Shown in pieces: positions 5,639-30,730 of a stretch of DNA of 64,000 nucleotides. The DNA is from Myxococcota bacterium (GTDB lineage: Bacteria > Myxococcota_A > Polyangia > Nannocystales > Nannocystaceae). The notes under the pieces are model-generated. The model did no database searches. It saw nothing but the letters and a program-made list of their open reading frames with translations, and had not been told where the DNA came from. Position numbers and translations under genes: made by a program. Positions within the stretch are counted from its first letter, which is position 1; each line of letters begins with the position of its first letter. The stretch spans positions 64,001-128,000 of the forward strand of contig JBCCHT010000025.1 of assembly GCA_039028615.1 (NCBI GenBank), written 5' to 3'.

Positions 5639-5914
5639 ATGAAACACCTACTCATTGAATCCGTATCGGTGGGCATCGCGATGATTGGCGTCTTGCTGCT
5701 GCATCCCATGACCGCGAGCTCAAATGTCGAGAATCATACGTCTTTGAGCGAATCCCGCGCCCAGCAGGAGTCCGCGCTCTATCTCGACAATGAGCCGCAA
5801 AGCGCGCATTTCGACCTCTCCTCGAAGCGCTGGTCTGTGACCGACGGCGAATCCACCGCATGGCTCGATGCCCGGACGGGCGAGCTGGTCGAGATCGAGT
5901 TCGGGGCGCCGTAA
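5639..5914 (+). CDS. Small hypothetical exported/membrane protein
   Basis: 91-aa ORF with hydrophobic N-terminus, C-terminal AWLDARTGELVEIEF; alternative start 5630. Confidence 0.5.
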   Translation: MKHLLIESVSVGIAMIGVLLLHPMTASSNVENHTSLSESRAQQESALYLDNEPQSAHFDLSSKRWSVTDGESTAWLDARTGELVEIEFGAP

Positions 5915-6075
5915 CGCACTCTTCGACACCGACCGCTCCTTGGCGGCGCCCCGGACCTCAGCGTCCGGCGACGCGAGCCGACGAGGAGCCGGGGTCGGGA
6001 TCGCAACAACAACTCGGGGCGACGGCCAGTACGCAGCCCGGGCGGAAGCCCGGCGCGGGCTGGCATGCGGCCACG

Positions 6076-9366
<3,291 letters not shown>

Positions 9367-9460: not shown

Positions 9461-11308
9461 CTACCGCTGGGCCGGGGCCACGGCACGAGCAACCAGTGCG
9501 GTCTGGCTGACGGGCACCACCTCCCCAGTGCTTCGATCGGCGAGCTGGAGGGCGTAGGCCGAGTCCTCGCTGATGTCGGCGCAGGCGTCGCGAGCCGGAC
9601 TGCATTCGAAGAACAGGGCAAACGAGGCATCCCAGGCCGGCTCGATGAACCACGAGAGGATCCAGTCACGGGCGAGAGGGCCGTCGAGTCGTTGCGGACG
9701 ACCGGGTCGCGACGCGCCGATGTCCACCGCGTGAAGGCTTCGCTCGCCCGTCTTCGGGTGCACCGCGCTGTACATCATGGTCGCGGGATCGCGCGTGGGA
9801 AAGAAGGAGAACAGAAACGGTGGCGCGGCAGCCCCCACCCGCTGGGACAGGCCCGGCTCGGCCCCCGAGAGATTGGTGCGGGCCAGCTCGTGCTCTTGCT
9901 CGTAGTACAGCCACGTCGAGGTCGGGTCGAACCATGGCCGATCGTGGTTGACCGAAGGCAGGTCGGTGAGCGGCACGGAGGGCCCGAGACCGGAGCCCGT
10001 GTACTCGGCCAGGTGCAGGACATCGGCTCCGGTCGGCATCCGCACGAGGTACAGCAGCCACCGCCCGTCTGGGGACCAGTCGAAGTGCTGGTGGAGGACC
10101 TGGCCGGGCGGGTCGGTATGAACGAGGCTCGCGGGCGATGGCGAGCCCGTCGCCAGATCCACGAAGTAGAGGTCCCCGCCGACCGCAACGCCACTCCAGT
10201 ACACGAGCGCGCTGCCGTCGGGGGCGAACGCGGGGCCCACCAGCCAGGGCCGCTCCGGGGGCACCGTGTCGATGCGGATCGGGTCAGCGGGCGTCGGTCC
10301 GGACAGATCGACGAAGTACAGCGCGTCCGGCAGCTCGGGCGAAGACCAGGGCGTCTCGAGGTAGGTCAGGGCCTGCCCTCCCGGAGCGACACGGGGCTCC
10401 ACCGCACGCCGCTGTGGATCGAGCACGGCGCTGACCCTGGCGATCGAGGCCGGATCGGGAGCGGTGAGCGAGGCGAGATAGACCTCGCCGGGCCCCTGTG
10501 CGGGGTTGGTCGCGAACGCCAACGTCTGACCATCGGGGCTGGGGTGCATGTCGTACAGGTCAAAGGGCGCGTCTTCGTCGTGGGGCACCGTCAACTCGGG
10601 CGCCTCGAGGACCCCGTCCTGATAGATCAACGTGAAGAGAGCCGCGTTGTCCGGCGGTGCGCCCTCGGCATGGTCACGAGCCCAGACGAGAAAGGTCTGC
10701 GTCTGCGGGATGTACTGCTCGATGGACAGCTGCGACGCCGCGGGCAGAGGGTCGACCCCGAAGGGCTGCGAAGCACCGGGTGTATCCGTGGAGATGTTCA
10801 CGACGAAGCACGACGTGTTGGGGTCCTCGTCGTCGCGGGTGCAGTAGGCCACCCCGTGCCCGTCGTCGACGACCTCGATCGAGTGGGTGAAGGTCGTGGG
10901 CGGCAGCGCGGGCGTCAGGGTCTGGGGTGCCGACAGCTCGCCCTCGGCATAGGTGTACAGCAGCGGCTCTCCGAGCCCACGAAACGAGGCGGTGTCGAAC
11001 ACGACAAAGCGTCCTCCACTGGGCTGCGCCCCTTCGGTGGTCTCCTCACCCTCGGACGATTCCTCGACGCCCATGGTGGTGTCGAGCGACCCCGTGCTGC
11101 CGGTCGCACCGACCTGGCCCGTCATCGATTCGGTGCCCGTGCCGAAGACCGTCGTGGACTCCTCCGCCACGCCCGTGGACTCTTCTGGGTCGATCGGGAC
11201 GATGGGGTCGCTGCAGGCCGCCCACGCCAGCGGGCTCGTGAGCGCGAGGGCCTGGAGGGTTCGTCGAACGCAGCGCCGTGACACGCCGAGCAACACTGCA
11301 TGGGCCAT
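9461..11308 (-). CDS. Lipoprotein with TolB/PD40-like beta-propeller
   Basis: Lipobox WAAC, Ser/Thr/Glu linker, repeated PSPDGQTLAF / FAPDGSALVY / WSPDGRWLLY blades. Confidence 0.75.
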   Translation of the reverse strand: MAHAVLLGVSRRCVRRTLQALALTSPLAWAACSDPIVPIDPEESTGVAEESTTVFGTGTESMTGQVGATGSTGSLDTTMGVEESSEGEETTEGAQPSGGRFVVFDTASFRGLGEPLLYTYAEGELSAPQTLTPALPPTTFTHSIEVVDDGHGVAYCTRDDEDPNTSCFVVNISTDTPGASQPFGVDPLPAASQLSIEQYIPQTQTFLVWARDHAEGAPPDNAALFTLIYQDGVLEAPELTVPHDEDAPFDLYDMHPSPDGQTLAFATNPAQGPGEVYLASLTAPDPASIARVSAVLDPQRRAVEPRVAPGGQALTYLETPWSSPELPDALYFVDLSGPTPADPIRIDTVPPERPWLVGPAFAPDGSALVYWSGVAVGGDLYFVDLATGSPSPASLVHTDPPGQVLHQHFDWSPDGRWLLYLVRMPTGADVLHLAEYTGSGLGPSVPLTDLPSVNHDRPWFDPTSTWLYYEQEHELARTNLSGAEPGLSQRVGAAAPPFLFSFFPTRDPATMMYSAVHPKTGERSLHAVDIGASRPGRPQRLDGPLARDWILSWFIEPAWDASFALFFECSPARDACADISEDSAYALQLADRSTGEVVPVSQTALVARAVAPAQR

Positions 11309-11431
11309 GCCCAGCGAAACACCCAGTGACTCGACGCGGGCCGCACACCGTAGGTGCCATCGGTGACGCGTTCCGCGACCCACTCTGCAAAGTTTACGCA
11401 CCCACGGGTCGCCGATGGCAGGATGGGGGCG

Positions 11432-14245
11432 ATGCCGAGGCCGCAAGGCATACGCAGCGCCCGTCGGTGGCGAGCCCTCGTGATGGCCGCCCTCGTGAGC
11501 GCGTGCGGTGAGGCTCCAGAAGCGGAGGCCACTTCCCAGCCCATTGCCACCCGCGACGTAACGCCGAAACCTACGACCGCGGAACCGGTGACGATGGGGG
11601 CCGCCTTCTCCGGCTGCGAGCGGGTTCTCGTGGGCCCGGTGTGCCAGTTTCACCCCGGCAAGCTACCGCTGCGCGTATGGCTGGACCTCGACCCGCGGAT
11701 CCCCGCCTCGGTGCACATCGATGGCCGGCGGATCGACGCCCCCTCGATCCCCGTCGAGGGTGGTCAGCGCTTCGAGATCACGCCTCCCGACGACGCCCGG
11801 CACCTGGAGTTTCGCGCCACCCTCGACGAGGGACCGGGCGTGTTCCGGCTCCGGCTGGCACTGAGCACGCCGCAGAACCAGGTGCTGACCAACCTGTGGA
11901 TCCGCAGCAACGACCCCGCGAAACGGGCCGCGGTGCGCCGCGAACTCGAGACGCTGCCCGACACCCTGAATCCCGACGACCGCGCGGAGGCCCTGACGCT
12001 GCGCGCCGCCTTGGCCCGCGACGCCGAGCTCCAGAGCAACAGCTGGTACGACGAATACGACGACGCGATCGAGGCAGCGCTGAAGGTGGGGCGGCACAGC
12101 GACGCGGCCAACCTGGCGCATCAGGGGTCGTTCTTCGCCCTGCACTTCCGCAACGACGACCAGGCCAGCGAGGCGTGGCTTCGCCGGGCCGCGGAGTATG
12201 CCCGGGACGATCCCGAGCGCCGCATGGCTCAGGCGTACCACGAGGGGTTGCTCGAGCGAGCCCGCGGCAACACCCGGGCCGCCCTTCAGGCCTTCGAACG
12301 CAACGAGATCGAGACCCGCAAGCTGGGCTTGCCCGCCCGAGAAGCCAGCGTGTTGAGCGAGCAAGCCAACCTCGCCACCCGGCTGGGCGCCCACGACCGG
12401 GCGCGCGAGCTGGCGGCGAGAGCCCGGGAGCTCGAGGACGAGCTGGAGCCCGCCACTCGGGCCCAGCTGCGCAGCAACCTGGGGTGGATGATGCTCGAAG
12501 CACGCAGCCGGGGCGTCGCGACCGAAGATCCGCTGCCGCTGCTGACGGCCGCCTACGAAGAGCTCCACCCGGAGGATCCCCTGCGGCCCGACGTGCAGCT
12601 CAACCTGGGCTACGCCGCGATCTTGCGGGGCGATGCCGACGAGGGCCAACGGTGGCTCGACATGGTCGACGCGCCCTCGCTCGATCGCGTGGATGGTCTG
12701 TGGCTTCGTCTGTTCCGCGCCCGGGTCGCCCTGCTGCTCGGCAAGGCGGGCCGAGCCCAACGCGAGCTGCAAGCCCTGCTCGACGGGATTGAGCCCCACG
12801 ACGAGCTCGAGCTGCGCCTGCTGGCGCGAGTGGGCCTGGGGGAGACCCACGAGGCCCTCGGGCGAGCCGATCGGGCGCTGGCCGACTACCGAGCGGCCCA
12901 AGCCCTGCTCGACCGGCAGCTCCCGCGCATCGCCATCAACACGGGTCGCGGGCGCTTCGCGGCGGAGCGCAACGAGAGCACGCGTCGCATGGTCGATCTG
13001 CAGCTACGCCAGGGCGACACGGCGCAGGCGCTGTGCATCGCCCGACGCTCGCGAACTCGCGTGCTCCGAGTGCTCTCCCGGCAGCTCCGCCACCGCGCCG
13101 AGGCCTCGCCCGCCCACCTGAGCGCCCTGCAGCAGTATCGACGGCGCCGCAGCGAGCTCGAGTCCCGCTTCGACGAGAGCTTCACCATGGCCACGATCGC
13201 GGGTGAGCGCGAGCGCCGAGACCTGAAGGCCGCGCTCCTCGAAAACGAGCAGGCCCTCGATCGAGTCCTCGACGCGCTCGGGGCCACCGCTCCCGAGCCG
13301 GTCGCCTGCGAAGACCTACCCGCGCCCGGACCGGGACAGCTCGACCTGCACTACATGCGCCTGGACGACGGCTGGGTGGTCTTCGCTCACGACGACCGAG
13401 AACTCGCCGTGCACCGACTGGGGCCGCTGCCCCTCGACCGTGAGCCGGGGCCGATCGATTTCGATGCCGATCGCCTCGCCGCCTTGGGACAGACGCTGCT
13501 CGGTCCCCACGCGGAGGCCTTGGCCCGAGCGACGCAGGTCCGCGTCATGGCCACGGGCGCGCTGGGTCAGGTGCCCTTCCATGCGCTCCCCGTGGCGGGT
13601 GCGGGCTCGCCTCGGCTGCTCGAGCGCGTGGCGGTCGGGTACGGCCTCGACTTGCCGGGGCCACGGACCGCTGCGGCCGGGGGCTCGACGCTCGCCGTCG
13701 TCGTGGCGCCACCGAGCAACCTCGCCCATGCCCCGGCCGAAGTCGAAGCGATCGAGGCCTCGCTCGCCGCGTCGTTCAGCACGGTGCGGCGCCTGCAAGA
13801 TGGCCACGCCACCGGGCAGCAGGTCCGAGAAGTGCTGCCCCGCGCCACGCTGCTCCACTACGTCGGTCATGCCCGCGCCGAGGGCCTCGAAGGCTGGGAC
13901 AGCGCGCTGCAGCTGGCCCGCAACACCACGCTCGGCATCGGGGACATCCTCTCCACGGACCACGCCCTCCGCACGGTGGTGCTCAACGGCTGCGAGACGG
14001 GCACCGTCGATCCGCAGACCTTGGCGGGCGGCATGAGCCTGGCCCATGCCTTCGTGCTGTCGGGGGCGAGCACGGTCATCGCCACGACCCGGACCGTGGA
14101 CGACGCGGCCGCAGCGGAGCTGATGCGTGCCTTCCATGCCGAGCTGGCCACGGGCGCCACTGCGCTGCAGGCCCTTCGACAGGCCCAACGAGCCCGTCCG
14201 GCCACCGACGAGACCATGCTGCACGCACGCGCGTGGGTGCCCTGA
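11432..14245 (+). CDS. TPR-CHAT (caspase-like) protease with lipoprotein signal
   Basis: RRWRALVMAALVSAC lipobox; TPR-like helices; QVPFHAL, LLHYVGHA (His), VVLNGCETG (Cys), AFVLSGASTVIAT; alternative start 11423. Confidence 0.88.
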   Translation: MPRPQGIRSARRWRALVMAALVSACGEAPEAEATSQPIATRDVTPKPTTAEPVTMGAAFSGCERVLVGPVCQFHPGKLPLRVWLDLDPRIPASVHIDGRRIDAPSIPVEGGQRFEITPPDDARHLEFRATLDEGPGVFRLRLALSTPQNQVLTNLWIRSNDPAKRAAVRRELETLPDTLNPDDRAEALTLRAALARDAELQSNSWYDEYDDAIEAALKVGRHSDAANLAHQGSFFALHFRNDDQASEAWLRRAAEYARDDPERRMAQAYHEGLLERARGNTRAALQAFERNEIETRKLGLPAREASVLSEQANLATRLGAHDRARELAARARELEDELEPATRAQLRSNLGWMMLEARSRGVATEDPLPLLTAAYEELHPEDPLRPDVQLNLGYAAILRGDADEGQRWLDMVDAPSLDRVDGLWLRLFRARVALLLGKAGRAQRELQALLDGIEPHDELELRLLARVGLGETHEALGRADRALADYRAAQALLDRQLPRIAINTGRGRFAAERNESTRRMVDLQLRQGDTAQALCIARRSRTRVLRVLSRQLRHRAEASPAHLSALQQYRRRRSELESRFDESFTMATIAGERERRDLKAALLENEQALDRVLDALGATAPEPVACEDLPAPGPGQLDLHYMRLDDGWVVFAHDDRELAVHRLGPLPLDREPGPIDFDADRLAALGQTLLGPHAEALARATQVRVMATGALGQVPFHALPVAGAGSPRLLERVAVGYGLDLPGPRTAAAGGSTLAVVVAPPSNLAHAPAEVEAIEASLAASFSTVRRLQDGHATGQQVREVLPRATLLHYVGHARAEGLEGWDSALQLARNTTLGIGDILSTDHALRTVVLNGCETGTVDPQTLAGGMSLAHAFVLSGASTVIATTRTVDDAAAAELMRAFHAELATGATALQALRQAQRARPATDETMLHARAWVP

Positions 14246-14279: not shown

Positions 14280-15635
14280 TCAGCGAACCCAGACCAGCGC
14301 GTCGCCGTCTCCGACCGCCTCGAACTCGACCGTATCGCCCGGCTCCAGCCCCACGACCAACTCGTGCCGTTGGTGCCCCTGCAGGGAGTCCAAGGCCCCT
14401 ACGCGAACGCCATTGACGAGGATCTGGACCCCTCGAACCGAGACCGCCCCGCCGACGTGCTTGACGGTCATCGAGCTGCGCCCGTCGGTCCGCACGGGCA
14501 CCCGTACCCGGGCGGGACACAGGTACTCCCGACCTCGACCGTCGCTGCGCTCGAGGCTCCAGCGATCGCCCGGCTCCTCGCCGAACGAGTAGTTCTGCAC
14601 GATCTTCGGGCCCGCGACCGGACGACTCGACAAGGTCCGCAGCTCGGACCGAATGGCCGCCAGCGCCTCCAGCACCGTGCTCCACAGCCCCTCGCCGCTC
14701 GCCTCCGCGTCGTCGACCCACCCGAACATGTGGCGGCGCTCGCCGAAGTGGAAGTCGTTGACGTAGGGCGGCACCTCGAACTCTCCGCCGGGCAGCGGCT
14801 TGCGGTCGCGAGTCCACCACGCCCGCGTGATCCAGCCGCCCGGCGACAAGATCAAGTGCACGTCGTTGCAGCCCATGGGCGCCTCGTCGGGATCGCGCTC
14901 GCTGTCGGGCATGGGCTTGCCGTCGCGGGTCCAGTACACGCGCCACACTCGGAACGAGTCACCGTCGCGCTCGAAGTCGATGCCGATGTCGTTGGCGCCC
15001 TCGGGGGCCTTGCGACGCCGCATCTCCTTGCCGTCCTTGGTGTAGACCACCTCCGCACCAGCCGCCACGAACTCGAGGTGGAGGTCGTTGGCCTCGATCG
15101 GGGGTCGCTCGGCCGGGCCATAGCGTTGGCCGTCCCGCGTCCACACCAGCTGAATGTCCTCGGGCGGCTCTTGCTTCGGCCGCCACGGGAAATTCTCGAG
15201 GAGCCCGAAGTGCACGTCGTTGGGCTTCAGCGTCTCGAAGGGAAACTTGATGTCGCCGATCGGCGTGCCGTCGCGAGTCCACCACGCCGCCGTGATGTGA
15301 CCGCCGCCCCGCGGGAGGATCAGGTGACCGTCGTCCGCGCCCTCGGGCGCGGGCTGGGCCCCTCCCTTCATGCGCTCACCGTCGCGAGTCCAGTACATCC
15401 GCCGGATCGACGGCGCCCCTGCCGAGTACAGCTCGAAGTCGAACCCGACGTCGTTGGCTCCCTCGGGCGCGGGGATGGGCTTGCCGATCGGTTTGCCGCC
15501 ACGGGTGAACTGGGCGAAAGCCCCTCCCTGGCCGCCATTGAAGCGCAGATGCAGATCGTTGGCACCTTCGGGGATCCAGTCGATCGGCCTCCCGATGGGC
15601 ATGCCGTTGCGGGTAAATCGAAGTCTGGGGGTCAT
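14280..15635 (-). CDS. Uncharacterised repeat protein, 8 x (W/F/Y)T(R/K)xG...(N/D)DxH repeats plus C-terminal beta domain
   Basis: AAGGA SD upstream of ATG 15635; clear internal repeats in translation; no signal peptide. Confidence 0.8.
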   Translation of the reverse strand: MTPRLRFTRNGMPIGRPIDWIPEGANDLHLRFNGGQGGAFAQFTRGGKPIGKPIPAPEGANDVGFDFELYSAGAPSIRRMYWTRDGERMKGGAQPAPEGADDGHLILPRGGGHITAAWWTRDGTPIGDIKFPFETLKPNDVHFGLLENFPWRPKQEPPEDIQLVWTRDGQRYGPAERPPIEANDLHLEFVAAGAEVVYTKDGKEMRRRKAPEGANDIGIDFERDGDSFRVWRVYWTRDGKPMPDSERDPDEAPMGCNDVHLILSPGGWITRAWWTRDRKPLPGGEFEVPPYVNDFHFGERRHMFGWVDDAEASGEGLWSTVLEALAAIRSELRTLSSRPVAGPKIVQNYSFGEEPGDRWSLERSDGRGREYLCPARVRVPVRTDGRSSMTVKHVGGAVSVRGVQILVNGVRVGALDSLQGHQRHELVVGLEPGDTVEFEAVGDGDALVWVR

Positions 15636-15727: not shown

Positions 15728-15755
15728 TGGACGGCCACGAGCCCCCGCGTGACGG
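15728..15755 (-). promoter_or_regulatory. Putative ECF promoter CCGTCAC-N15-CGTCCA, copy 1, upstream of repeat-protein gene
   Basis: Minus strand reads CCGTCACgcgggggctcgtggcCGTCCAtgg. Confidence 0.8.
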
Positions 15756-15870
15756 ATCGATTTCGACCCCACCGAGGCCCACGTCGGCCCCGCCCTGCCG
15801 CCGAGGACCGACCACGGATCGAGGCCGTGGCGACCCGAAAACGGCGCTCCGCAATTTTGTTGCCGCGAAG

Positions 15871-15898
15871 CCGTCACATTCGATGACGATCGCGTCCA
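15871..15898 (+). promoter_or_regulatory. Putative ECF promoter CCGTCAC-N15-CGTCCA, copy 2, upstream of subtilase-sigma-antisigma operon
   Basis: CCGTCACattcgatgacgatcgCGTCCA, ending 10 nt before ATG 15909. Confidence 0.8.
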
Positions 15899-15908
15899 GG
15901 ACTCTCCG

Positions 15909-18098
15909 ATGGACCTTCGTCTCCCGTGCGTCTTTGGCTTGGTCGGCTCGCTCGCCTTGGTGGGCTGCCTCAACTCCAATCCTTCACAAACGTCCGCGAC
16001 CGGCCCCGGCGACGACAAGGGCGACGAAGGCACCATCATCGTTCCGCCCCCGCCCCCGCCTCCGCCTCCACCTCCGCCCCCGCCGCCCGTGGTCGAACCC
16101 GCGTGCCCCGGGAATCCGAATCCGACGCGGTACATCGCGATCATGGAGGACCCCGCCGCCTGCGTCGGCACGGAGGAGTGGAGCGCCGCGCCGCTGTTCC
16201 GAGCGCCGGGAACCGGGCTCGCCGTCGGTGCGCCCGGCCCGGTCGAGGTCGAGGCCAAAGCGGCGGCCGAGGCTCAGGTCCCGGCCGAGGTCGAAGAACT
16301 GGAGGCACCGCCCTCGCCCTGGCCGGAGCCCCTGCGGAGCTTCTGCGAGTACGAGTGGCGAGGCGAGACCGAAGTCCCCGGGCCTCCCGAGGTCGATGCC
16401 ATCGAGATCGATCCCGACTGCAATCGCTTGCTGCCCCAAGCCCCCGCGCGCAACACCATCGAAGACGACCGCAAGGAGCTGCGCCGACGGCAGGCGGTCC
16501 GCACCGAACTGGAGCTCGGGTTCCCCGATCGTCGCGGCCCCTCCCCGGTCGTCGCGAACGGACCCTACGTCGCCATCGTCGATACGGCCGACACCACCGC
16601 CCCGGGTGCCCCGACGCCTCCCTATTGGTCCGCCGACCCGAACCGAGCGTCCCAGCGACATGGCCTGATGATGCAGGGCCTGGTCGATGCGGTGCGCTGC
16701 TCCGAAAGCCCCGGCGACACCTGCCGCAACCGACGGTTCACGGTGCAGGCGTTCACTCGCGGCACCATCCCCGGTCAGCTCGGCAGCCTCGGCTCGCTGG
16801 CGCAAGCGCTGAGCGTAGCGATGGTGCAGTGGCAGGCCCAGCCCGACGCCGCCAATTCCGGTCTGGTGATCAACATGAGCCTCGGCTGGGATCTGCTGCC
16901 GTCGGAGGCCCTGGACGACAACCACATGAACCTGCTGCAGAACGGGCCCGACCCGGTCCCCGTGCCCGCCCGCGCGGTGCATGCCGCGTTGGCCTGGGCC
17001 GCCTGCCGTGGTGCGCTGAGCTTTGCGTCGTCGGGCAACGATCGGGGCATTGCGTGCGAGCAGACCGGGGCGATGGGCCCCGCCGCCTGGGAACAATGGG
17101 CCGCCCCCACGGCGGCCGCCTGCACGCCGCACTTCGGGGCGCCCCCCGCCAGCGTCACCGCGGGCAACGGTGCTCGCCTCGTGGCCGCGGTCGGCGGAGT
17201 GGAGATGAACGATCAACCGCTCGCGATCACCCGCCGCGGCAGCCTGCCCACACGAGTCATGTACGCCCACGAGGCGGTCATTGCCGTCGAGGGCGGTGCG
17301 TTCTCCGAGCCCTGGACGGGGACCTCGGTGCCCACCGCCGTGGCCTCCGCCCTCGCGAGCGCCCTGCCCAACCGCGGTCCCACGCCGACCCCCGCCGAGC
17401 GCCTGCAACGCATCGACGCCAGCGGAACGGCGATCGGCAAGCAGGCCGAGCTGTACCCCGGAACCCAGAGCTCCCCGGCCAAGCGCATCGACGTCCGCCA
17501 GGCCTCGGCCTTGGTCCGCCGCTTGGTGCAGCCGCCGAGCGCCCGGCCCCCGAAGGTCGACGAGGCCTTCGCCGCGCTGGTCTCCGGGCACTTCCCCGCC
17601 CCGGCCACGATGCTCGGCGTCAACCGACCGCGGTCGGGAGGCCCCGTCTGCGAAAACGCCGACGTGGACGCCTTCGGCACCAGCCCCGCCCGGCGGCAGC
17701 CCCAAGTCACGGACCTGGCCGCCGCCACCCGGCCGCAGCCCCACGTGCCGATCTGCCCCGACTGCACCATCTTCCGCCCCACGGGCACCACGCAGTACCA
17801 AATGACGGTCGACCTCGAGCCCGAGTACGAGCAGACCCGGATCGATCGAACGACGCTCAGCTTCTTCGACGAGAGCACCAACACCTTCCTGGTCGTGGAG
17901 CTCGATGACACCATCGACCCCGACGCGCTCCAGGTCCTCTCGCTCAATCGCCCGCAGCTGCCGGGCGGGGGCTCGCTCGCCGACTGGCTCGAAAATCGCC
18001 CTGCCGTCGTCAAGGGACGCGTCTCGTTCTCGGTCGACGACGGGAGCGGCAACCCGCCACAGATGGTCAACGAAGAGATCATCATCTCGCGACGATGA
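15909..18098 (+). CDS. S8 (subtilisin-like) serine peptidase lipoprotein
   Basis: Lipobox LVGC, poly-Pro linker; VAIVDT (Asp), RHGLMM (His), VINMSLG, SSGND (oxyanion Asn), TGTSVPT (Ser). Confidence 0.82.
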   Translation: MDLRLPCVFGLVGSLALVGCLNSNPSQTSATGPGDDKGDEGTIIVPPPPPPPPPPPPPPPVVEPACPGNPNPTRYIAIMEDPAACVGTEEWSAAPLFRAPGTGLAVGAPGPVEVEAKAAAEAQVPAEVEELEAPPSPWPEPLRSFCEYEWRGETEVPGPPEVDAIEIDPDCNRLLPQAPARNTIEDDRKELRRRQAVRTELELGFPDRRGPSPVVANGPYVAIVDTADTTAPGAPTPPYWSADPNRASQRHGLMMQGLVDAVRCSESPGDTCRNRRFTVQAFTRGTIPGQLGSLGSLAQALSVAMVQWQAQPDAANSGLVINMSLGWDLLPSEALDDNHMNLLQNGPDPVPVPARAVHAALAWAACRGALSFASSGNDRGIACEQTGAMGPAAWEQWAAPTAAACTPHFGAPPASVTAGNGARLVAAVGGVEMNDQPLAITRRGSLPTRVMYAHEAVIAVEGGAFSEPWTGTSVPTAVASALASALPNRGPTPTPAERLQRIDASGTAIGKQAELYPGTQSSPAKRIDVRQASALVRRLVQPPSARPPKVDEAFAALVSGHFPAPATMLGVNRPRSGGPVCENADVDAFGTSPARRQPQVTDLAAATRPQPHVPICPDCTIFRPTGTTQYQMTVDLEPEYEQTRIDRTTLSFFDESTNTFLVVELDDTIDPDALQVLSLNRPQLPGGGSLADWLENRPAVVKGRVSFSVDDGSGNPPQMVNEEIIISRR

Positions 18099-18154
18099 AC
18101 CTCGGGGCGACGGCTCTCGGACAGGAGGTCGTGATATGGTGCCGTCGCCCGAGC

Positions 18155-18745
18155 ATGACGCCCGAGGAGATCGACAGTGCGTGTCGCGGCGATGGCGACG
18201 CCCTGACCTCCCTGGTCGAGGTTCTGCTACCGGTGATCAAGGTCGAGGTCGTGGTGGCCCTCCAGCAACGATCGGGAGCCCGCGGGCGTGACGTCCGGCA
18301 AGACGTCGACGACTTCGTGCAGGACGTGATGCTGCATCTGCTCGACAACGACGGTCGCGTCCTCCAAGACTGGGACCCCGCGCGCGGGCGCTCGCTGCCG
18401 AGCTTCGTGCGCATGGTGACCCGCCACCGCGTCGCCCGGGTCCTCGAAGGATTCCGCGGCAATCCCTGGAGCACCGATCCGGTCGAGCACGAGGACCTCG
18501 AGCAGCTCCGCGCGGACACCAGCGGCACCTTTCGCCGCCTCGCCTCCCGCGACGAGCTCGCCCATGTGCTCGAGGCCCTGTGGGCACGGCTCGACGCCCG
18601 CGGCCGCGAGCTGTTCCAGCTGCTCTTCGTCGAGCAGCGCCCCACCGCCGAGGTCTGCGAGCGCATGCAGATGACCCCCGCCGCCGTTCGGCAGTGGACG
18701 GCTCGAATGCGCCGAAACCTGCGCAAGCTGGAGGAGGCGGCATGA
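18155..18745 (+). CDS. ECF RNA polymerase sigma factor
   Basis: Region 2 DVDDFVQDVMLHL...WDPARGRSLPSFV; region 4 LFVEQRPTAEVCERMQMTPAAVRQWTARMR; start may be 18095, 18131 or 18155. Confidence 0.88.
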   Translation: MTPEEIDSACRGDGDALTSLVEVLLPVIKVEVVVALQQRSGARGRDVRQDVDDFVQDVMLHLLDNDGRVLQDWDPARGRSLPSFVRMVTRHRVARVLEGFRGNPWSTDPVEHEDLEQLRADTSGTFRRLASRDELAHVLEALWARLDARGRELFQLLFVEQRPTAEVCERMQMTPAAVRQWTARMRRNLRKLEEAA

Positions 18746-19578
18746 CCGGCCCCGAGATCGACGAGCCGATGCTGGACGCGCTGGGCAAGCTCGAGCGCGA
18801 GCGCGCCGCGTCGATCCCCGCGGGGCTCGAGGACTACGTCGCGGGTCGACGCTCGGCCGAGGACGTGCTCGCCGAGGCGCCCCCCGAGGACCGAGAGCGG
18901 GTCCAAGCCATGCTCGACGCCCTCGGCCCCGCGGATCCCGAAGCGCCCCGGGCCTGGGCCACGCGGCTGACCGCTCAGCTCGAAGCTCGAGCCGCCGATC
19001 GAGCGGAGCCCGAAGCCGAACCCCCCATCGACCTGGCCGAACGCCGTCGCTCGCGGGTCGTGGTGTGGACGGTGGCGGCCACTGCCGTGGCCGCGGCCGC
19101 TGTGGCCGTGCTGACCCTGATGCCCCGGGGTCAGCCCGCACCCGAACCCGACGGAGATCCCCCTGCGGTCGGCACCTCCTTGCCCTCGTTCACGCTGACC
19201 GTGCGCGACTCTTCCGTGCAGACGATCCGCGGCGAGCCCGACCTGAGCAAACCCGCCCGCTACCTGCCGACCTCGCAGATCCACTGGGTGCTCAGCCCGC
19301 TACGCCCCCAGGACGGGCCGCTCGGCGTGCGCGTGCTGGCGCAGGACGACCAGGGCGCTCGACGCTTGCTCACCCCGGCCGAGCCGCGCCGACTCGACAA
19401 CGGGGCGATCGAGATCGAGGGTCGCTTGGCCCAGCAGCTCGAGCTTCCCGCCGGCCACTGGACGCTGCGGTTCGTCGTGGGTGAGCAAGCCTCGCTGCCG
19501 AGCGATCCGGCCGCCGTCGATCGGGGTGGCCCGTGGGTCGTCGCCGAGCCGGCCTACGTGGTGCACGTGACCGACTGA
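18742..19578 (+). CDS. Putative membrane anti-sigma factor
   Basis: ATGA overlap with sigma gene; about 105-aa N-terminal domain, one TM (VVVWTVAATAVAAAAVAVLTLM), C-terminal beta-rich domain. Confidence 0.7.
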   Translation: MTGPEIDEPMLDALGKLERERAASIPAGLEDYVAGRRSAEDVLAEAPPEDRERVQAMLDALGPADPEAPRAWATRLTAQLEARAADRAEPEAEPPIDLAERRRSRVVVWTVAATAVAAAAVAVLTLMPRGQPAPEPDGDPPAVGTSLPSFTLTVRDSSVQTIRGEPDLSKPARYLPTSQIHWVLSPLRPQDGPLGVRVLAQDDQGARRLLTPAEPRRLDNGAIEIEGRLAQQLELPAGHWTLRFVVGEQASLPSDPAAVDRGGPWVVAEPAYVVHVTD

Positions 19579-19675
19579 TCGGCACCGCCCACGCGGCGCC
19601 ACGAAGGAGCGATCCAGCCCGGCTCTTCGCAGGTCGGTGGGTCGCTCGTTTTTTTCACCCTCCGCGGTCACGACC

Positions 19676-19703
19676 CCGTCACGCCAGGGCCTGTCGCCGT
19701 CCA
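19676..19703 (+). promoter_or_regulatory. Putative ECF promoter CCGTCAC-N15-CGTCCA, copy 3, upstream of gene at 19829
   Basis: CCGTCACgccagggcctgtcgcCGTCCAtgg. Confidence 0.8.
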
Positions 19704-19828: not shown

Positions 19829-20980
19829 ATGGCGAAAGGCCGCACCTGGTGCATCGACTTTCAAACCGCCGCGACCAAGGCGGGCGACGTGAGCGTGAAG
19901 TATCGCGTCAAGCTCCCCAACGGCATGATCCAAGAGCTCAACGGTAGCTGGCAGGGCTACCCGATCGGCATGACCCCCGACGCGAAGGCGACCCGTTTTT
20001 TCAGGCGCCTGTCCACCGATCCCAACATGAGCTCGCTGGTCAACGTGTCCCGGGCCGGCAATACCGTCTGCTTTCAGCTCAAGGACGGCGCCCCCTACGA
20101 CGACATCGAGGGCATCGAGGTCGGCGACGAGACGGGACAGATCATCCACACCTACGACGATCCGCCGCCCGCCGACACCTCGCCGCTCGGGCCCCTCGAC
20201 ACGGTGCGGCTCGTGCTGTCCCCCAACGGGCGTCGCTCCGCCGAGGGCGGCAACGTGTGGCTGGGCATCGGCGTCACCGCCCCGCTCGTCTGCGTGCCCA
20301 CCCGACCCGAGGGCGGACGGCTCGACGTGGCCGCCGTGATCGAAGCGATCGTCAGAGCGTTCAACGAGGCGTACGCGGAGCTCGGCTACGAAGCCGCCCC
20401 CGGCAACGACGGCGAGGTCATCATCCCCGAGGTCCCCTGCAAGCTCGGCGTCCGCGGAGGGACCGACGACCCCGACCTGAGCTCCTCGCTCGGGCTGGTC
20501 AACCCGGCGGCGGGCGGCTTCGAACGGCCCTTCTCCAAGGCCGACGCGCTTCGGGCCGCCTTGGAGGTCATCGACGCCCGACTGCGCCGCACCTTCCCTC
20601 ATACCGCGGCCGGGGCCGGCATGGTGACCGGAGAGATCGCCCTGCAGGTGGTCGGCGGGACCGTGGCCGCGTGCCCCAACCCTTACGACGACGTCATCGC
20701 GGAACTCGAGGGCATCAAGGGCACCCTCGAGCGCCTGAAGAAGGGGCGCACCGACGCCCAGAAGAAGGCGCTCGAAGAGGCCCGCACCAAGATCCAAGAG
20801 GCGATCGACGGCCTCGAGAAGATGCGCGACTCCGACCCCAACGCGCCGAGCGAGGGTGACATCCAAAAGGCCCTCCGCGACGCGGCCGACAAGATCGACG
20901 AGGCCAACCCCAACCGCCGCAACGGCTCGCTGCGTCGCCAGGCCGACGCCCTGAGGGACATCGAGCGCAACCTGTTCTGA
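19829..20980 (+). CDS. Uncharacterised protein with C-terminal helical/coiled-coil domain
   Basis: 383-aa ORF, GC3-biased codons, A-rich leader, no signal peptide. Confidence 0.8.
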   Translation: MAKGRTWCIDFQTAATKAGDVSVKYRVKLPNGMIQELNGSWQGYPIGMTPDAKATRFFRRLSTDPNMSSLVNVSRAGNTVCFQLKDGAPYDDIEGIEVGDETGQIIHTYDDPPPADTSPLGPLDTVRLVLSPNGRRSAEGGNVWLGIGVTAPLVCVPTRPEGGRLDVAAVIEAIVRAFNEAYAELGYEAAPGNDGEVIIPEVPCKLGVRGGTDDPDLSSSLGLVNPAAGGFERPFSKADALRAALEVIDARLRRTFPHTAAGAGMVTGEIALQVVGGTVAACPNPYDDVIAELEGIKGTLERLKKGRTDAQKKALEEARTKIQEAIDGLEKMRDSDPNAPSEGDIQKALRDAADKIDEANPNRRNGSLRRQADALRDIERNLF

Positions 20981-25202: not shown

Positions 25203-26810
25203 TCACGACACCCGGGGTCGGCGACTCAGCCCATGCCACGCGCTGCCCATGAGCCAGATCCCCAGGCCCCCCGCCGTCGCCCACCACAGCCACAGCCAGT
25301 CCGGGAACACAACCGTCAGCGCGGCGGACACCACGAAGGTCACCGCCGGAATGAGCATGCGGGGCAGCAGCACCGCCATCGCGCCCAGGAACAGCGCGAA
25401 GGTCAGCAGGGCCAGGCTGACCGTGGCCCGCAGGGGGAGCTGGAGGTACCAGCCCAGCGACGGGAAGGCGACCATCGCCGTCGACAACGCCAACATCATG
25501 CCGTTTTGGGTTCGGCTGACCAGGCTCATCGGTCGTCGACGCTGACTCCGGGCGCGTCGATGGATCGCGGTGATGATGTAGCCGAGGACGCAGGACGAAG
25601 ACACCACGCACAGGGTGAGCAAGAACGGATAGGCGACGTCGAGGTCGGCCGGCAGGACGTACTCTTGAGCGTAGATCGCCGCCCCGAGGTTGATCAGGCC
25701 GACGATGAACGACGCGACCACCCGGGAGCGCACGCCCACCCGCAGGTCGACGTGACGCCGAAGATCGACGATCTCCTGGTCGGCCATCGATCCCAGCAAT
25801 CGCCGCAACTTCCTCAGCAACACCTCCATCGATGGCCAGCGCCGATGGGGCTCGGAGGACAAGCCGCGCAGCAGCACCCGCCGTAGCTCGCGGGGCACCA
25901 GGCTTTCGGGCGGCGGAGGCTTGATGGTGTCGCTCGTCATCGCCTCCATCAGCTCGGGAATCGAGCCGCCGGGGAAGGGCCGCTCGCCGTAGACCGCCTC
26001 GTACAGCGAGACGCAGAAGCTGAACTGATCGCTGAGCACCGACGCGTCGTGCCCGGCCATCTGCTCCGGCGGCATATAGGCCGGCGTCCCGAGGATGGCC
26101 CCCGTCTGGGTGAGCGACACATCGAGCGGCACCGATCGCTGCGCCGCCGAGCGCACGCGCACCACGACGCTGGGCACGCTCTCGTCCGCGTCCGCCCCGT
26201 CGCGTCGCGCCAGGCCGAAGTCCAAGACCCGCACTCGGCCGTCGTTGTCGACGACCACGTTGCCGGGCTTGAAGTCGCGGTGCACCAAGCCTTTGGTATG
26301 CGCCGCCGCCAAGCCTCGCCCCGCTTGCAGGTACAGCTCGAGGCACTCGGTCCAGTCGGGGCAGGTGCCGCTGTCGTTCTGCCACTGGCGCAGGGTCTGG
26401 CCCTTCACCAGCTCCATGACCAGGAAGATCTTCTCGTCGACCTCTCCGACCTCGAAGACCTGCACCACGTTGGGGTGAGAGAGCTTGGCCATGGCCTGCG
26501 CCTCCCGCTTCAGGCGTGGCCCGTGGTTGCCGACCGGGTCCGTGTGCAGGACCTTGATCGCCACCTGTCGGTCGAGGACGTCGTCGTAGGCCTTGAGCAC
26601 CACGCCCATGGCTCCCTCGCCCAGCTCGTCGAGCACGATGTAGCGACCGAAGCGGCGCACCGTCGGCTGGGCGAAGAGCGCCCCGAGCACCTTGGCGCGA
26701 CGAGCCTCCTGCACGGCCGTGATCTCGCGGGGCTGATTGGGCACCATCCGCATGGGGTGGATGTCCACTTCGATCGTGCTCTGCTCTAGATCGACATCTT
26801 CCACGGCCAA
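25203..26810 (-). CDS. Ser/Thr protein kinase with C-terminal multi-TM domain
   Basis: GEGAMG, VAIK, HRDFKPGN, DFG, GTPAYMPPE; about 6 hydrophobic helices at C-terminus; start uncertain. Confidence 0.92.
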   Translation of the reverse strand: MAVEDVDLEQSTIEVDIHPMRMVPNQPREITAVQEARRAKVLGALFAQPTVRRFGRYIVLDELGEGAMGVVLKAYDDVLDRQVAIKVLHTDPVGNHGPRLKREAQAMAKLSHPNVVQVFEVGEVDEKIFLVMELVKGQTLRQWQNDSGTCPDWTECLELYLQAGRGLAAAHTKGLVHRDFKPGNVVVDNDGRVRVLDFGLARRDGADADESVPSVVVRVRSAAQRSVPLDVSLTQTGAILGTPAYMPPEQMAGHDASVLSDQFSFCVSLYEAVYGERPFPGGSIPELMEAMTSDTIKPPPPESLVPRELRRVLLRGLSSEPHRRWPSMEVLLRKLRRLLGSMADQEIVDLRRHVDLRVGVRSRVVASFIVGLINLGAAIYAQEYVLPADLDVAYPFLLTLCVVSSSCVLGYIITAIHRRARSQRRRPMSLVSRTQNGMMLALSTAMVAFPSLGWYLQLPLRATVSLALLTFALFLGAMAVLLPRMLIPAVTFVVSAALTVVFPDWLWLWWATAGGLGIWLMGSAWHGLSRRPRVS

Positions 26811-27117
26811 AAATCCCCCTAGACCATCAGTGTAACGGCGACACCGATTGACTGAGCGATTTCACGACTTTTCGCCAATTGGGCACCTGGTCCTTTTGGG
26901 CAATTCGATCGCCATGGCACTTCACCGCGAACCGAATGCTCGATTGGGTAACAAAGAGGGAGTCAAAGCTCCGCGGTGACGCACTCACCCTTGGGCACCC
27001 GAGGATGCCCGGGACTGACGAATGCACAACCAGACCACGCTGCAAGCCTCCATCGTCTCCGTTCACTCGGGAAGCCCGCCTGCACCGTGGCGCACCGCTC
27101 CCCGTATACTCGTCGCC

Positions 27118-27747
27118 ATGGGCGATGGTGAGTTGCTGCTGGCATGGCGCGACGGCGATCGCGCGGCCGGGGAAGAACTGTTCGAACGCCACTACCCCAC
27201 GGTGGAGCGGTTCTTTCGCAACAAGGTCTCGGAGCCCGACGAGCTCATTCAGCGGACCTTCCTCGCCTGTACCGAATCGGCGGCCCGGTTCCGTGGGGAC
27301 TCCAAGTTCCGCACCTTCTTGCTGGGCATCGCGTTCAACGTCCTGCGTACCTTCTATCGACAACTGCAGCGAGACCGAGGCCTGGACTCCATCCACGAGA
27401 GTTCCGTGGCCGATCTGGGGCAGACCCCGAGCCGGGTCGTGTGCGCCCGCGAAGAGGAAGAGCTGCTGCTCGCCGCCCTGCGACTGCTGCCGTGTGAGCT
27501 CCAGGTGCTGATCGAGCTTCGCTACTGGGAGAACCTCAAGCACGACGAGCTCGCGGAGATCCTCGAGCACCCGCGAAGTACCATCAACTCCAAGCTCCGC
27601 CGCGCTCGCAAGCTCCTCGACGAGGGCATGCGGACGCTGGCCCGAACCCCGCAGGTCTTCGACAGCACGGTGGGCAACCTCCAAGAGTGGGTCGAGCAAC
27701 AGCGGCGCCGGGGACCCCTCGGGCCCGGCAGCACACAGGAGTCCTAG
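27118..27747 (+). CDS. ECF RNA polymerase sigma factor
   Basis: ELLLAWRDGDRAAGEELF, ELIQRTFLAC, FRTFLLGIA, LRYWENLKHDELAEILEHPRSTINSKLRRAR. Confidence 0.92.
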   Translation: MGDGELLLAWRDGDRAAGEELFERHYPTVERFFRNKVSEPDELIQRTFLACTESAARFRGDSKFRTFLLGIAFNVLRTFYRQLQRDRGLDSIHESSVADLGQTPSRVVCAREEEELLLAALRLLPCELQVLIELRYWENLKHDELAEILEHPRSTINSKLRRARKLLDEGMRTLARTPQVFDSTVGNLQEWVEQQRRRGPLGPGSTQES

Positions 27748-27751
27748 ACCG

Positions 27752-30730
27752 ATGGATGAGCACGGGAGCCTCGAACGCAAGCTCATCCGGGTCGGTCACA
27801 CCCCCGCGGACGAAGACGCCGACGCCGACCGCAAGCGCGGGATCATGGCCCGCATCTTCGGCGATCCGGCGCCGCCGCGTCGCATCGGACGCTTCATCGA
27901 CCTCGGGCTCCTGGGCCACGGCGCCATGGGTACGGTGCGACGGGCTTACGACGAGCACCTGGCCCGCGAGGTCGCGATCAAGGTCATCCGACACCGGTCG
28001 ACCCAAAAACGCCGCGACCGGCTCCTGCGAGAGGCCCAGGCCCTGGGGCAGCTGTCTCACCCGAACGTGGTGCAGGTCTACGAGGTCGGGGAAGTCGGCG
28101 AGGAGATCTTCATCGCGATGGAGCTGGTCGACGGGGTCTCGCTCGAGCAGTGGCAGGGCGAACGTCACGCCTGGCGGGCGTGCCTCGACGTCTACCTGCA
28201 AGCCGGGCGGGGACTCGCCGCCGCCCATGCCAAGGGTCTCATCCACCGCGACTTCAAGCCCGCCAACTGCATCCGCGACACCGAGGGTCGCGTGCGCGTG
28301 CTCGACTTCGGCTTGGTGCGGGCCGTCGACGCTCCGGTGTCTCCAAACGGCCGCCGCCAGAAGCTCGCCGACTCGCTCGATCCCCCGTCGTCGCTGGGAG
28401 GCACGGCCCCCTCCCACCACGGTTCCGGCACGGGCTCGTCCTCGGAGGGGTCGATGCTGGCGGTGCAGCTGACGGCCGACAACGCGGTCGTGGGCACGAT
28501 CGCCTATATGGCCCCCGAGCAGCTCGTCGGTGATGACGCGGACGCGCGGAGCGACCAATTCAGCTTCTGCGTCGCGCTGTACGAGGCGCTGTACGGTCAC
28601 CCACCCTTCGGGAGCAATCCTCAGAGCACCCTCCAAAAATTGGCCATGGGGCAACGGATCAAGCCCGCGACGGCGTCGACGCGGGCCGTTCCCCGCTGGC
28701 TCCACCGGGTGCTCGAGCGAGGCCTGGCCGCCGACCCCAGCGAGCGATGGCCATCGATGAACGCGCTGCTGCAGACGCTGGAGCGCCAGCCGCGGGCCGC
28801 CACCGTGCGACGAGCCTCGGTGTTCACCGCGGTCGTGGCCGCGGTCGGATTTTATGGGGCGTCGGCCTACGGAGAGGCGCAGTGCGACCACGACTCTCGG
28901 CGTGAAGCCTTGTGGGGCGAAGCGCAGCGGCAACACGTCCGCGAGGCCATGCACGCCACCGAGCTCCCGTACGCGGACGAGACCTGGGAGACCATCGACC
29001 GCCAACTTCAGGTCCGCACCACGGCGTGGGCCGACGCCGCACAGAGCGTTTGTCGGGCTAACGAAGCGCGACCGGAGCCCGTCGCCAACTCGGTGCAAGA
29101 CCATTGCCTCGAGCGGGAGCATGACGCCCTCGCGAGCTACGTCGAGCTCGTCTCGGCCTCGAACCCCGACACGGTGCGGTACGCGGTCGACATGGTGGCG
29201 GCCCTGCCCTCGCTGGAGGGCTGCGCCCGGGCCCTCGAGCTCGATGGTCCGCGGGCCATCGCGGGCACGGCCGACTGGGCAACGACCCTCGACGTGGCCC
29301 GCAGCTTGGACCGCGCGCGGCTGCTCGAAGCGGCGGGCCAGCTGGGCGAAGGGCTGTCCATCGCCTCCGATGCCGCCGCTCGGGCCACGGCGCTCGGTCC
29401 CCGCTGGTCGGCCGAGGCACAGCTGGTCGAAGGCCACCTGCTCATGAGCGACCACCAAGCCGAAGCCGCCGAGACCAAGCTCCGCGGCGCGCTCGGACTG
29501 GCGGCGGAGCACGGCTTCACCGATCTGAGGGTCGACTCGGCCGCCACGCTCGGTCATGTGCTCGGGGTCGAGCAGGGCAAGACCCAGGCCGCCATGGAGC
29601 GCCTGGACTCGCTCGAGACGACGCCGGGGATTTCCGATCGCGCCCGGGCCCTGGTGTGGACCCACCGCGGCAACGTGACCTCGAGTCGCGCCGAGTGGTC
29701 CGAGGCGGAAGGCCACTACCGGCAAGCACTGCAGCTGCTGGAGGCCGAACTCGGCCCCTTCGACCTCGGCCTGATCGAGGCCCTGGATGGGCTCGCCACC
29801 GTGCTCCGCAGGCAAGGAAAGCTGGACGCCGCCCTCGAGTTCCGAGCACGGGCGGTGCAGATCCACGAGCGGCTCCAAGGCGCGGATCATCCGGCCACCG
29901 CGTTCACCCGGGCGAACCAAGCCGCGATCGACCTCGACCAGGGCAACGCTCAGCGGGCAAAGCAAGCGCTCGAAGACGCGATCTCGACCTTGGAGCGGAC
30001 CCTCGGATCGGAGCACGGCGATCTCGCCTCGCCGCACAACACCCTCGCCATGGTCTTCGCCGAGCTCGGCGACCACGCCCGAGCCGAGAGCGAGTTCCTC
30101 ACCGCCATCCGCATCTGGAGCGCAACGAAGGGCCCCGACGACGCGATGGTCGCCCTGGCGCGGTTCAACCTCGGTCACTTCCTGAGCGAGCGCGGCCAGA
30201 CGACCAAAGCCATCGAGCAGCTGAGCGTCGCCGCGGAGATGTTCGACCGCGCCGATCCGTCGGACGCGAGCGTACGGGGCTACGCGCGGGCGCAACGAGT
30301 CCTGGGCAAGGCCCACCGCGCGGCCGGAGACACGGCCAACGCCGACGAGCACTTCCGGCTCGGTCTCGCCAAGCTCCGCCGCCACGGCCTCGAGTTCGAC
30401 CCCATGACCGCTCGCATCCTCAATGGGCTGGGTCGGACCGCGCTTCGACGCGGCGACGCAGCGGAGGCGGCCGACGTGCACCTGCGGGCGGTGAGGGCCT
30501 ACGACGCCCTGCTCGAAGGTGACGAGCGAGACCGGCAGGTCGCACGAACGCGCCTCTACGTGGCCGAGGCGCTCGCGCACCAGCACCAGCGCAGCGACGC
30601 CCTGAAACAAGTCGATCGCGCCATCGCGCTGTACGAGCGGCTGCTCGCCAAAGACGCCTCGTCGGCGGTCGCCCAGCGACGCCTCCGCGAGGCCCGACAG
30701 CTCCGCAGCCGGATCGCCTCCGCGCCCTGA
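27752..30730 (+). CDS. Ser/Thr protein kinase with TM and TPR repeats
   Basis: GHGAMG, VAIK, HRDFKPAN, DFG, GTIAYMAPE; TPR repeats; starts 4 bp after sigma gene. Confidence 0.92.
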   Translation: MDEHGSLERKLIRVGHTPADEDADADRKRGIMARIFGDPAPPRRIGRFIDLGLLGHGAMGTVRRAYDEHLAREVAIKVIRHRSTQKRRDRLLREAQALGQLSHPNVVQVYEVGEVGEEIFIAMELVDGVSLEQWQGERHAWRACLDVYLQAGRGLAAAHAKGLIHRDFKPANCIRDTEGRVRVLDFGLVRAVDAPVSPNGRRQKLADSLDPPSSLGGTAPSHHGSGTGSSSEGSMLAVQLTADNAVVGTIAYMAPEQLVGDDADARSDQFSFCVALYEALYGHPPFGSNPQSTLQKLAMGQRIKPATASTRAVPRWLHRVLERGLAADPSERWPSMNALLQTLERQPRAATVRRASVFTAVVAAVGFYGASAYGEAQCDHDSRREALWGEAQRQHVREAMHATELPYADETWETIDRQLQVRTTAWADAAQSVCRANEARPEPVANSVQDHCLEREHDALASYVELVSASNPDTVRYAVDMVAALPSLEGCARALELDGPRAIAGTADWATTLDVARSLDRARLLEAAGQLGEGLSIASDAAARATALGPRWSAEAQLVEGHLLMSDHQAEAAETKLRGALGLAAEHGFTDLRVDSAATLGHVLGVEQGKTQAAMERLDSLETTPGISDRARALVWTHRGNVTSSRAEWSEAEGHYRQALQLLEAELGPFDLGLIEALDGLATVLRRQGKLDAALEFRARAVQIHERLQGADHPATAFTRANQAAIDLDQGNAQRAKQALEDAISTLERTLGSEHGDLASPHNTLAMVFAELGDHARAESEFLTAIRIWSATKGPDDAMVALARFNLGHFLSERGQTTKAIEQLSVAAEMFDRADPSDASVRGYARAQRVLGKAHRAAGDTANADEHFRLGLAKLRRHGLEFDPMTARILNGLGRTALRRGDAAEAADVHLRAVRAYDALLEGDERDRQVARTRLYVAEALAHQHQRSDALKQVDRAIALYERLLAKDASSAVAQRRLREARQLRSRIASAP

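Follow-up and report, generated by a model that had tools for sequence, protein, structure and literature searches.

Three copies of a bipartite motif at a CHAT protease, subtilase and ECF sigma factor cassette of a Nannocystaceae myxobacterium: probable promoters of the cassette's own sigma factor

We analysed a 64,000-nucleotide stretch of DNA from a myxobacterium of the family Nannocystaceae (NCBI GenBank assembly GCA_039028615.1, contig JBCCHT010000025.1, positions 64,001 to 128,000 of the forward strand), referred to below as the window. It carries a cassette encoding a CHAT protease, a subtilase, a sigma factor of the extracytoplasmic function (ECF) type and a candidate anti-sigma factor, together with three exact copies of the motif CCGTCAC-N15-CGTCCA. 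Sequence comparison indicates that the three copies are probably target promoters of the sigma factor encoded at 18155, which would read CGTCAC through its residue Arg179 and control its own operon and two flanking genes, here called orphan A and orphan B, with no cross-talk from sister sigma factors. The features of the locus are the following.

11423..14245, plus strand: TPR-CHAT caspase-like protease (Pfam CHAT, E 1e-30), with lipobox LVSAC and His816/Cys857 dyad motifs
14280..15635, minus strand: orphan A, 451 aa, a repeat-built beta protein encoded between the CHAT and subtilase genes
15728..15755, minus strand: promoter copy 1, -35 CGTCAC at 15754-15749, conserved A at 15728, predicted transcription start (+1) at about 15718 and a leader of 83 nt; predicted to drive orphan A
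15871..15898, plus strand: promoter copy 2, -35 CGTCAC at 15872-15877, with the conserved A at 15898 and +1 predicted at 15908; predicted to drive the subtilase-sigma-anti-sigma operon
15909..18098, plus strand: subtilase (S8) lipoprotein, 729 aa, with lipobox Cys20 and Asp225, His251, Asn377 and Ser473
18132..18140, plus strand: extended -10-like TGATATGGT, candidate housekeeping promoter for basal expression of the sigma gene
18155..18745, plus strand: sigma factor of the ECF type, 196 aa long, having only regions 2 and 4; Arg179 is the equivalent of RpoE Arg171
18742..19578, plus strand: candidate single-pass anti-sigma factor, 278 aa, overlapping the sigma stop codon; membrane span at about 106-126
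19676..19703, plus strand: promoter copy 3, predicted +1 at about 19713 and a leader of 116 nt; predicted to drive orphan B
19829..20980, plus strand: orphan B, 383 aa, with a predicted tail-sheath-like N-terminal domain and a predicted C-terminal four-helix bundle

An earlier note, made from the sequence alone, had proposed that the three copies define a local ECF regulon, and its description of them agrees with our counts and with our gene map of the window. Three exact matches occur in the window against 0.03 expected, and none of 100 shuffles reached three; when up to two mismatches are allowed the motif is not in excess, with 9 matches against 5.7 expected and 9 of 100 shuffles reaching 9. 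All three copies are intergenic and are aimed at the start codons at 15635 (copy 1), 15909 (copy 2) and 19829 (copy 3). Copies 1 and 2 stand back to back with 115 nt between them, copies 1 and 3 share ATGG directly after the motif, and copy 2 ends 10 nt before its ATG. The genome-wide pattern scan proposed in the same note returned five exact matches in 12.27 Mb, namely the three window copies and two antisense matches within coding genes, which we discarded as regulon members; 17 alternative spacer lengths gave zero to three matches each (mean 1.0). Since the pattern had been picked after being seen, we also ran a look-elsewhere test for any 7+6 bipartite word with a spacer of 12-20 that is common to three upstream segments within 6 kb. 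Among the 5754 upstream segments having at least two neighbours within 6 kb, only two neighbourhoods contained such a word, one being the window cassette and the other lying on contig C8. Five other genomes of the genus yielded zero to two scattered motif matches each and no cluster.

The neighbourhood on contig C8 (G000:C8:22500-25000) contains three copies of CGTGACGGAA-N13-GGAGAA, placed before a gene judged by eye to be sigma-like and before two similar lipoprotein-like genes, and is likely a second local ECF regulon.

Related TPR-CHAT/subtilase/ECF/anti-sigma cassettes were mapped in 55 loci drawn from genomes of the family. The source genome itself encodes eight close and at least four distant sigma/anti-sigma/CHAT cassettes, five of them with a subtilase, and at least 16 family-like sigma factors. 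The named homologues belong to Nannocystaceae, and the closest named locus comes from Paraliomyxa miuraensis. No orthologue with DNA context above 68% identity was found in 72 family genomes and no closer one in wider genome and metagenome contig collections, the metagenomes giving 11 distant matches. Of three DNA sequencing runs compared with the stretch, just one, from the possible source sample, extends across it. Comparison of the regions upstream of the related operons shows the window motif to be a variant spelling of a frame common to the family, YGTCA-N21-A-N-G, in which a constant YGTCA is followed by A 22 nt later and G 24 nt later. Counted within 300 nt upstream, the frame precedes 23 of 38 subtilase genes, 13 of 53 anti-sigma genes and 9 of 52 sigma genes, but none of 51 CHAT genes, against a background of 3.2% of 9365 genome genes; twelve other spacers of the frame gave zero to seven of 38 before subtilase genes. 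At held-out loci (L083-L099), which were obtained after the frame had been defined, it stands before 5 of 14 subtilase genes. The frame was likewise not found upstream of the window CHAT gene (11100-11520 scanned), so that the earlier note was right in seeing no motif there, and the window TPR-CHAT protein is likely a constitutive sensor.

Positions 18-21 of the frame vary by clade (GTAG, GACA, GCGA or GTCC) and are more alike within cassettes than between them (2.24 versus 1.53 of 4, p 0.005). The earlier note had pointed to CGT in the -10 element as a mark of ECF promoters; the bipartite ECF-type architecture is confirmed, whereas CGT is not the conserved part, CGTCC being the window cassette's own spelling. 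A/T runs of at least 6 precede 10 of 45 family sites against a background of 3.6%, at most a hint of CarD-CarG dependence.

The base after YGTCA tracks a single residue, which lies in the recognition helix of sigma-4 and corresponds to RpoE Arg171. We tabulated 45 sites, drawn from 31 of the 60 cassettes with a single sigma, and 39 of these sites fall in the majority class for their residue: the prevailing base is G for Asp (10 of 12) and Tyr (13 of 15) and T for Asn (11 of 12) and Ser (3 of 3); the one core site that goes with Arg has C, and the two that go with His have one A and one T. Permutation gives p 5e-5 for this covariation among cassettes that, as kin, are not independent. The structure of RpoE shows a bond between Arg171 and the G that faces C-31 (PMC1540707), and mutating the equivalent residue is reported to switch -31 specificity (PMC7776599). 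The sigma factor at 18155, which matches the Pfam r2 and r4_2 profiles and scores above cut-off with TIGR02937, has Arg at this place (Arg179, aligned onto E. coli RpoE Arg171 by two Pfam profiles). All three window copies carry C at -31, as in the RpoE structure, and their -35 bases thus agree with the sigma-4 reader. Arg occupies the reader position in no other of the 62 cassette sigmas or of the 16 family-like sigmas of the genome, and of 66 database homologues only the relatives at 95% and 76% (P0001 and P0002) share it.

If the base after YGTCA is taken as -31, the constant A becomes the -10 base and transcription is predicted to start at position 32. Of 38 subtilase genes, 11 have an in-frame start codon at 32-33 (the one in the window at 33), against zero to two for four control spacers, and the predicted +1 of copy 2 at 15908 is one base before the ATG. 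The coincidence of start codons with the predicted +1 suggests that the subtilase mRNA is likely leaderless, which supports what the earlier note had read from the position of copy 2. The subtilase-sigma-anti-sigma operon is likely autoregulated through this copy. A second, basal source of the sigma factor is likely provided by the extended -10-like word, as TGnTAnnnT precedes 16 of 52 cassette sigma genes compared with a background of 9.4%. Taken together, the family frame, the -31 covariation, the starts at +1 and the absence of the frame before CHAT genes support the central claim of the earlier note, that the copies are promoters of the 18155 sigma.

Several points weigh against this assignment. 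The frame was recognised by eye on loci up to L070, which makes the counts from those loci partly circular; kin cassettes are not independent in the frame and residue counts; and the strict frame is missing before 15 of 38 subtilase genes. The gene calls are home-made, and starts called too late could hide sites before CHAT genes, while the start-codon count used a -35 that was relaxed after the clade of the C29 cassette had been seen. At held-out loci eight of eight core sites carry the predicted -31 base, with G, the commonest base, predicted in all eight. The register of Arg179 is fixed by the Pfam anchors only, direct alignments to RpoE (MAFFT, hhalign, ungapped sliding) being ambiguous or in another register. 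The link between Arg and C represents a single lineage and one evolutionary event, and C also stands at -31 in three cassettes without Arg (L036, L038 and L053), where it is probably background. With regard to the -10 element, region 2.3-2.4 of sigma-2 is the same or nearly so in the 18155 sigma and in those of C11, L034 and L035, yet the latter three have GTAGA where the window has GTCCA, and the distant L058 sigma (44% identity) also goes with GTCCA, so that the -10 code is not explained by the sigma-2 residues checked. Finally, the profile of the candidate anti-sigma factor found no match among solved structures.

The alternative that survives best, although we consider it improbable, is that the copies are indeed ECF promoters read by another sigma factor of the genome, either that of a sister cassette or one of the ECF41 type (TGTCACA-n16-CGTC). 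The genome encodes the family-like sigmas counted above, the -10 of the window copies is spelled much as in the Asn/Ser clade (L058), both GTCAC and CGTC are words described for ECF41 (PMC3426412), and the source genome has one ECF41-like sigma, which scores below the family cut-off. However, the distance from GTCAC to CGTC is given as 17 +/- 1 nt for ECF41 (PMC3426412) and is 15 nt in the window copies, and no such site lies near the ECF41-like gene. As for the sister sigmas, their -31 reader is Asp, Asn or Tyr and the base at their own sites is G, T or A, and copy 2 occupies the place where each paralogue has its own promoter.

Two further explanations are very unlikely. The copies might be relics of a local duplication of a promoter fragment, with only copy 2 working and the flanking genes outside the regulon: copies 1 and 3 have 10 of 15 spacer bases in common in addition to ATGG, and neither flanking gene turned up in the 72 other family genomes that were searched, which precludes a comparison of their sites for conservation, but the likeness between copies ends at the motif edges, each copy is aimed at a gene, and sites in the cassette's own spelling also precede flanking genes in the paralogous cassettes C1, C32, L047, L049, L050 and L069. 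With just as little chance of being right, the motif could be a direct-repeat operator for a response regulator or other transcription factor, as CGTC occurs twice in each copy, 21 nt or two helical turns apart; in paralogous cassettes, however, the second half reads GTAGA, GACAA, GCGAA or GTAGG although neither its spacing nor its place changes, which makes the repeat of CGTC incidental, and the cassette has no other regulator genes.

Returning to the copies as promoters of the 18155 sigma, the regulon may extend beyond the locus. A strict genome scan gave 11 matches, 7 in genes and 4 intergenic, the latter being the three copies and a site at C86:9385. This site lies 58 nt before the gene for a secreted protein of 425 aa, whose MYXO-CTERM match falls just short of the threshold (19.4 bits, cut-off 20), and has CGTCACGC and GCCGTCCA in common with copies 1 and 3. 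Given 11 genome matches to the strict pattern, 7 of them in genes, the site is not significant by itself, and we regard it as a likely candidate for a fourth promoter. The regulon that the earlier note called local is therefore clustered as far as the three copies are concerned, but may not be strictly local. The protein encoded there (L100:5473-6750, G000:C86) has its MYXO-CTERM-like segment in the middle of the sequence, with a second lipoprotein-like part after it.

The earlier note had also linked two orphan genes to the module. The copies are aimed at both genes, but neither is a true orphan, since orphan A has 81 distant relatives and orphan B has 5; neither was found in the 72 other family genomes searched, and neither has a signal peptide. 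Orphan A consists of eight hairpin repeats of about 38 aa, which form two copies of an unnamed all-beta domain (about 140 aa) and a C-terminal part (structure model pLDDT 94). Its beta-domain region (14721-15635, minus strand) has a four-hairpin layout with ANDxH ... WTxDG; among 82 representatives, a hydrophobic N-terminus was seen in 29 of 81. Searches of Pfam and NCBIfam placed orphan A in no family, an Atlas search gave no match, and the fold search gave no clear fold, the best hit having Z 8.2 at a root-mean-square deviation (rmsd) of 3.5, followed by NAD-kinase beta domains at Z 6-7. For orphan B (model pLDDT 70), the first 112 residues match 8kee (Z 11.0, rmsd 2.2 over 90 residues), so that its N-terminal domain is predicted to resemble the insertion domains of phage tail sheath or nozzle proteins, although sharing a fold does not establish a function. 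The structural matches of its C-terminal four-helix bundle are generic, and its Atlas search gave only matches under 0.9. The orphan A profile scores the ends of three orphan B relatives above all 200 shuffles of each (15.2, 10.5 and 4.7 bits), a weak hint that the two proteins might work together. Pairwise BLAST of orphan A against relatives of orphan B gave weak matches (E 0.001 and 0.28).

In the closest paralogues, referred to as C11-type, the CHAT and subtilase genes are adjacent, and orphan A and copy 1 therefore look like later insertions. The 18155 sigma groups with the C11-type in the tree, on a branch of 0.38 compared with 0.11-0.13 for its three closest relatives.

The His/Cys dyad motifs are present in 43 of 51 cassette CHAT proteins. 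The Asp-His-Ser triad and oxyanion Asn of the subtilase are invariant across 27 aligned homologues (of 38), whose alignment profile matches mycosin and subtilisins; Pfam S8 matches 25 of the 27 members, but not the window protein itself. The candidate anti-sigma factor, which we infer to bind the sigma factor, has a helical N-terminal part, a membrane span and an outer domain carrying Arg163. Just outside the membrane and invariant across 26 aligned homologues (of 53), Arg163 is a candidate cut site. No conserved Cys/His zinc site was found in the alignment of homologues.

Several described systems resemble parts of this cassette. In DdvS/DdvA of Myxococcus xanthus an ECF sigma is described together with an anti-sigma that spans the membrane once and with a TPR-CHAT part in the periplasm, and proteolytic release has been proposed (PMC6061681, PMC11506125). 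The account of DdvS gives four clustered mapped promoters of the form GTAA-n16-CGT, with the same spacing as GTCA-n16-CGT in the window but a different -35, and one of them has its +1 within the annotated ATG, a further likeness (PMC6061681). DdvA is reported to fuse TPR-CHAT to a zinc-binding anti-sigma, whereas the two are separate genes in all cassettes mapped here; in the window, moreover, CHAT is a lipoprotein of its own, there is a subtilase as well, and the anti-sigma shows no conserved Cys/His zinc site. The reported targets of DdvS are CRISPR/CBASS, which those in the window are not. ECF54 is described as having genes for a subtilase and a TPR-CHAT protein and a conserved +1 gene beside that of the sigma, with protease control proposed, but also as 100% actinobacterial, without an anti-sigma and with a carboxypeptidase-regulatory-like +1 gene (PMC7826278, PMC8999054); its reported promoter is GTATCAG/CTCC (PMC7826278), compared with CGTCAC and GTCCA here. 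The window cassette belongs to a myxobacterium, its +1 protein is single-pass and without a carboxypeptidase-regulatory-like Pfam match, and both of its proteases are lipoproteins. ECF41 shares the -35 GTCAC and -10 CGTC words and a tiny local regulon, but is described with a spacer 2 nt longer, a sigma with a fused C-terminal domain and no anti-sigma (PMC3426412); the window sigma has 196 aa without such a domain, and its stop codon overlaps the gene of a membrane partner. The cassette would thus work like DdvS/DdvA and has the ECF54 gene set, but fails the defining features of DdvS/DdvA, ECF54 and ECF41. In the type III-E CRISPR system Csx29/Csx30/CASP-sigma, a TPR-CHAT protease is likewise described as acting on a sigma-factor partner (10.1101/2023.06.23.546230); that system is reported as cytoplasmic and RNA-activated, whereas the window CHAT is exported and has no Cas genes. 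Our literature search brought up DdvA, ECF54 and CRISPR-linked systems only and no paper dealing with the present cassette or its promoter, and a search combining Nannocystaceae, ECF and CHAT found nothing; the ECF classification supplement or the datasets of PMC7776599 may contain the group.

We propose the following mechanism. The housekeeping extended -10 would supply basal sigma and anti-sigma, and the membrane anti-sigma would hold the sigma. A constitutive periplasmic TPR-CHAT lipoprotein would sense a protein cue and cut the anti-sigma, probably, at about even confidence, after Arg163, a choice based on the invariance of this residue and on the Arg/Lys specificity described for caspase relatives (10.1101/2023.06.23.546230). 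Intramembrane proteolysis would then free the sigma, as proposed for DdvA (PMC11506125). The freed sigma would fire the three promoters, giving leaderless subtilase mRNA, more sigma and anti-sigma, and orphans A and B, and probably also the C86 surface protein, with the induced subtilase serving as an output or feedback protease. In terms of origin, a C11-type cassette was likely duplicated, after which sigma-4 would have changed from Asp to Arg, the promoters would have undergone a matching G-to-C change together with -10 changes, and two new target genes would have been captured.

It is common for an ECF regulon to be local; about half of ECFs are reported to regulate three promoters or fewer, often nearby (PMC7776599, PMC1540707). 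The new part is a paralogue code that can be read: compared with the ECF specificity code as published (PMC7776599), it is visible here among close paralogues of one genome. With a promoter spelling of its own, each of several nearly identical switches gated by proteases could serve a small gene set apart from the others, and the paralogues form a natural series for studying how sigma factors grow orthogonal after duplication, one that includes a -10 switch outside the known code. A widespread CHAT-subtilase-sigma cassette also gains a predicted promoter, a start site, a reporter read-out and a candidate cut site. The signal that activates the periplasmic TPR-CHAT part of DdvA is described as still unknown (PMC11506125), and such a reporter would permit screening for the signal of a protease of this kind. 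A broader interpretation, which we offer tentatively and consider rather doubtful, is that Nannocystaceae-type myxobacteria maintain up to a dozen exported CHAT/subtilase/anti-sigma/ECF switches per genome as a surveillance array that is diversifying, in which every switch fires leaderless mRNAs and is insulated by its own -10 spelling together with a change of one residue and one base at -31, and that the window copy has captured two effectors (the tail-sheath-like and beta-repeat proteins, fused in other organisms) for anti-phage or cell-to-cell conflict.

Further observations concern the related cassettes. In many of them the sigma gene ends with a frame site that is aimed at the anti-sigma gene alone, as seen in L049, L051, L052, L054, L055, L058, L061, L062, L097-L099 and G000:C40; it likely provides negative feedback, and the window cassette is without such a site. 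In G000:C29, L038, L040, L041, L085 and L092, CGT(T/A/G)G replaces CGTCA before the subtilase gene. The C29, L038, L040 and L041 sigmas have Val at the place equivalent to RpoE Phe175, possibly a second code position.

The spelling of cassettes C1 and C32, CGTCAT-N18-CAA-N-G, also occurs at distant sites, G000:C20:186900 and 189230, C43:66780, C24:181730 and C56:34770. These sites sit 7-8 nt before genes for secreted proteins or lipoproteins, and those paralogues may consequently have larger leaderless regulons. Frame sites were also seen upstream of four small peptide-precursor-like genes, at G000:C18:218492-218716 (minus strand), C30:86148-86387 (minus), C32:46825-47043 (plus) and C21:42914-43126 (plus). 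One of these encodes four TTLAIGEE-type repeats and is presumably graspetide-like, and one of the four we take to be Nif11-like. In the window, the cassette is flanked by Ser/Thr kinase-TPR genes at 5860-9366 and 25203-30730 and by an ECF-like gene of the kinase-paired kind at 27022-27747.

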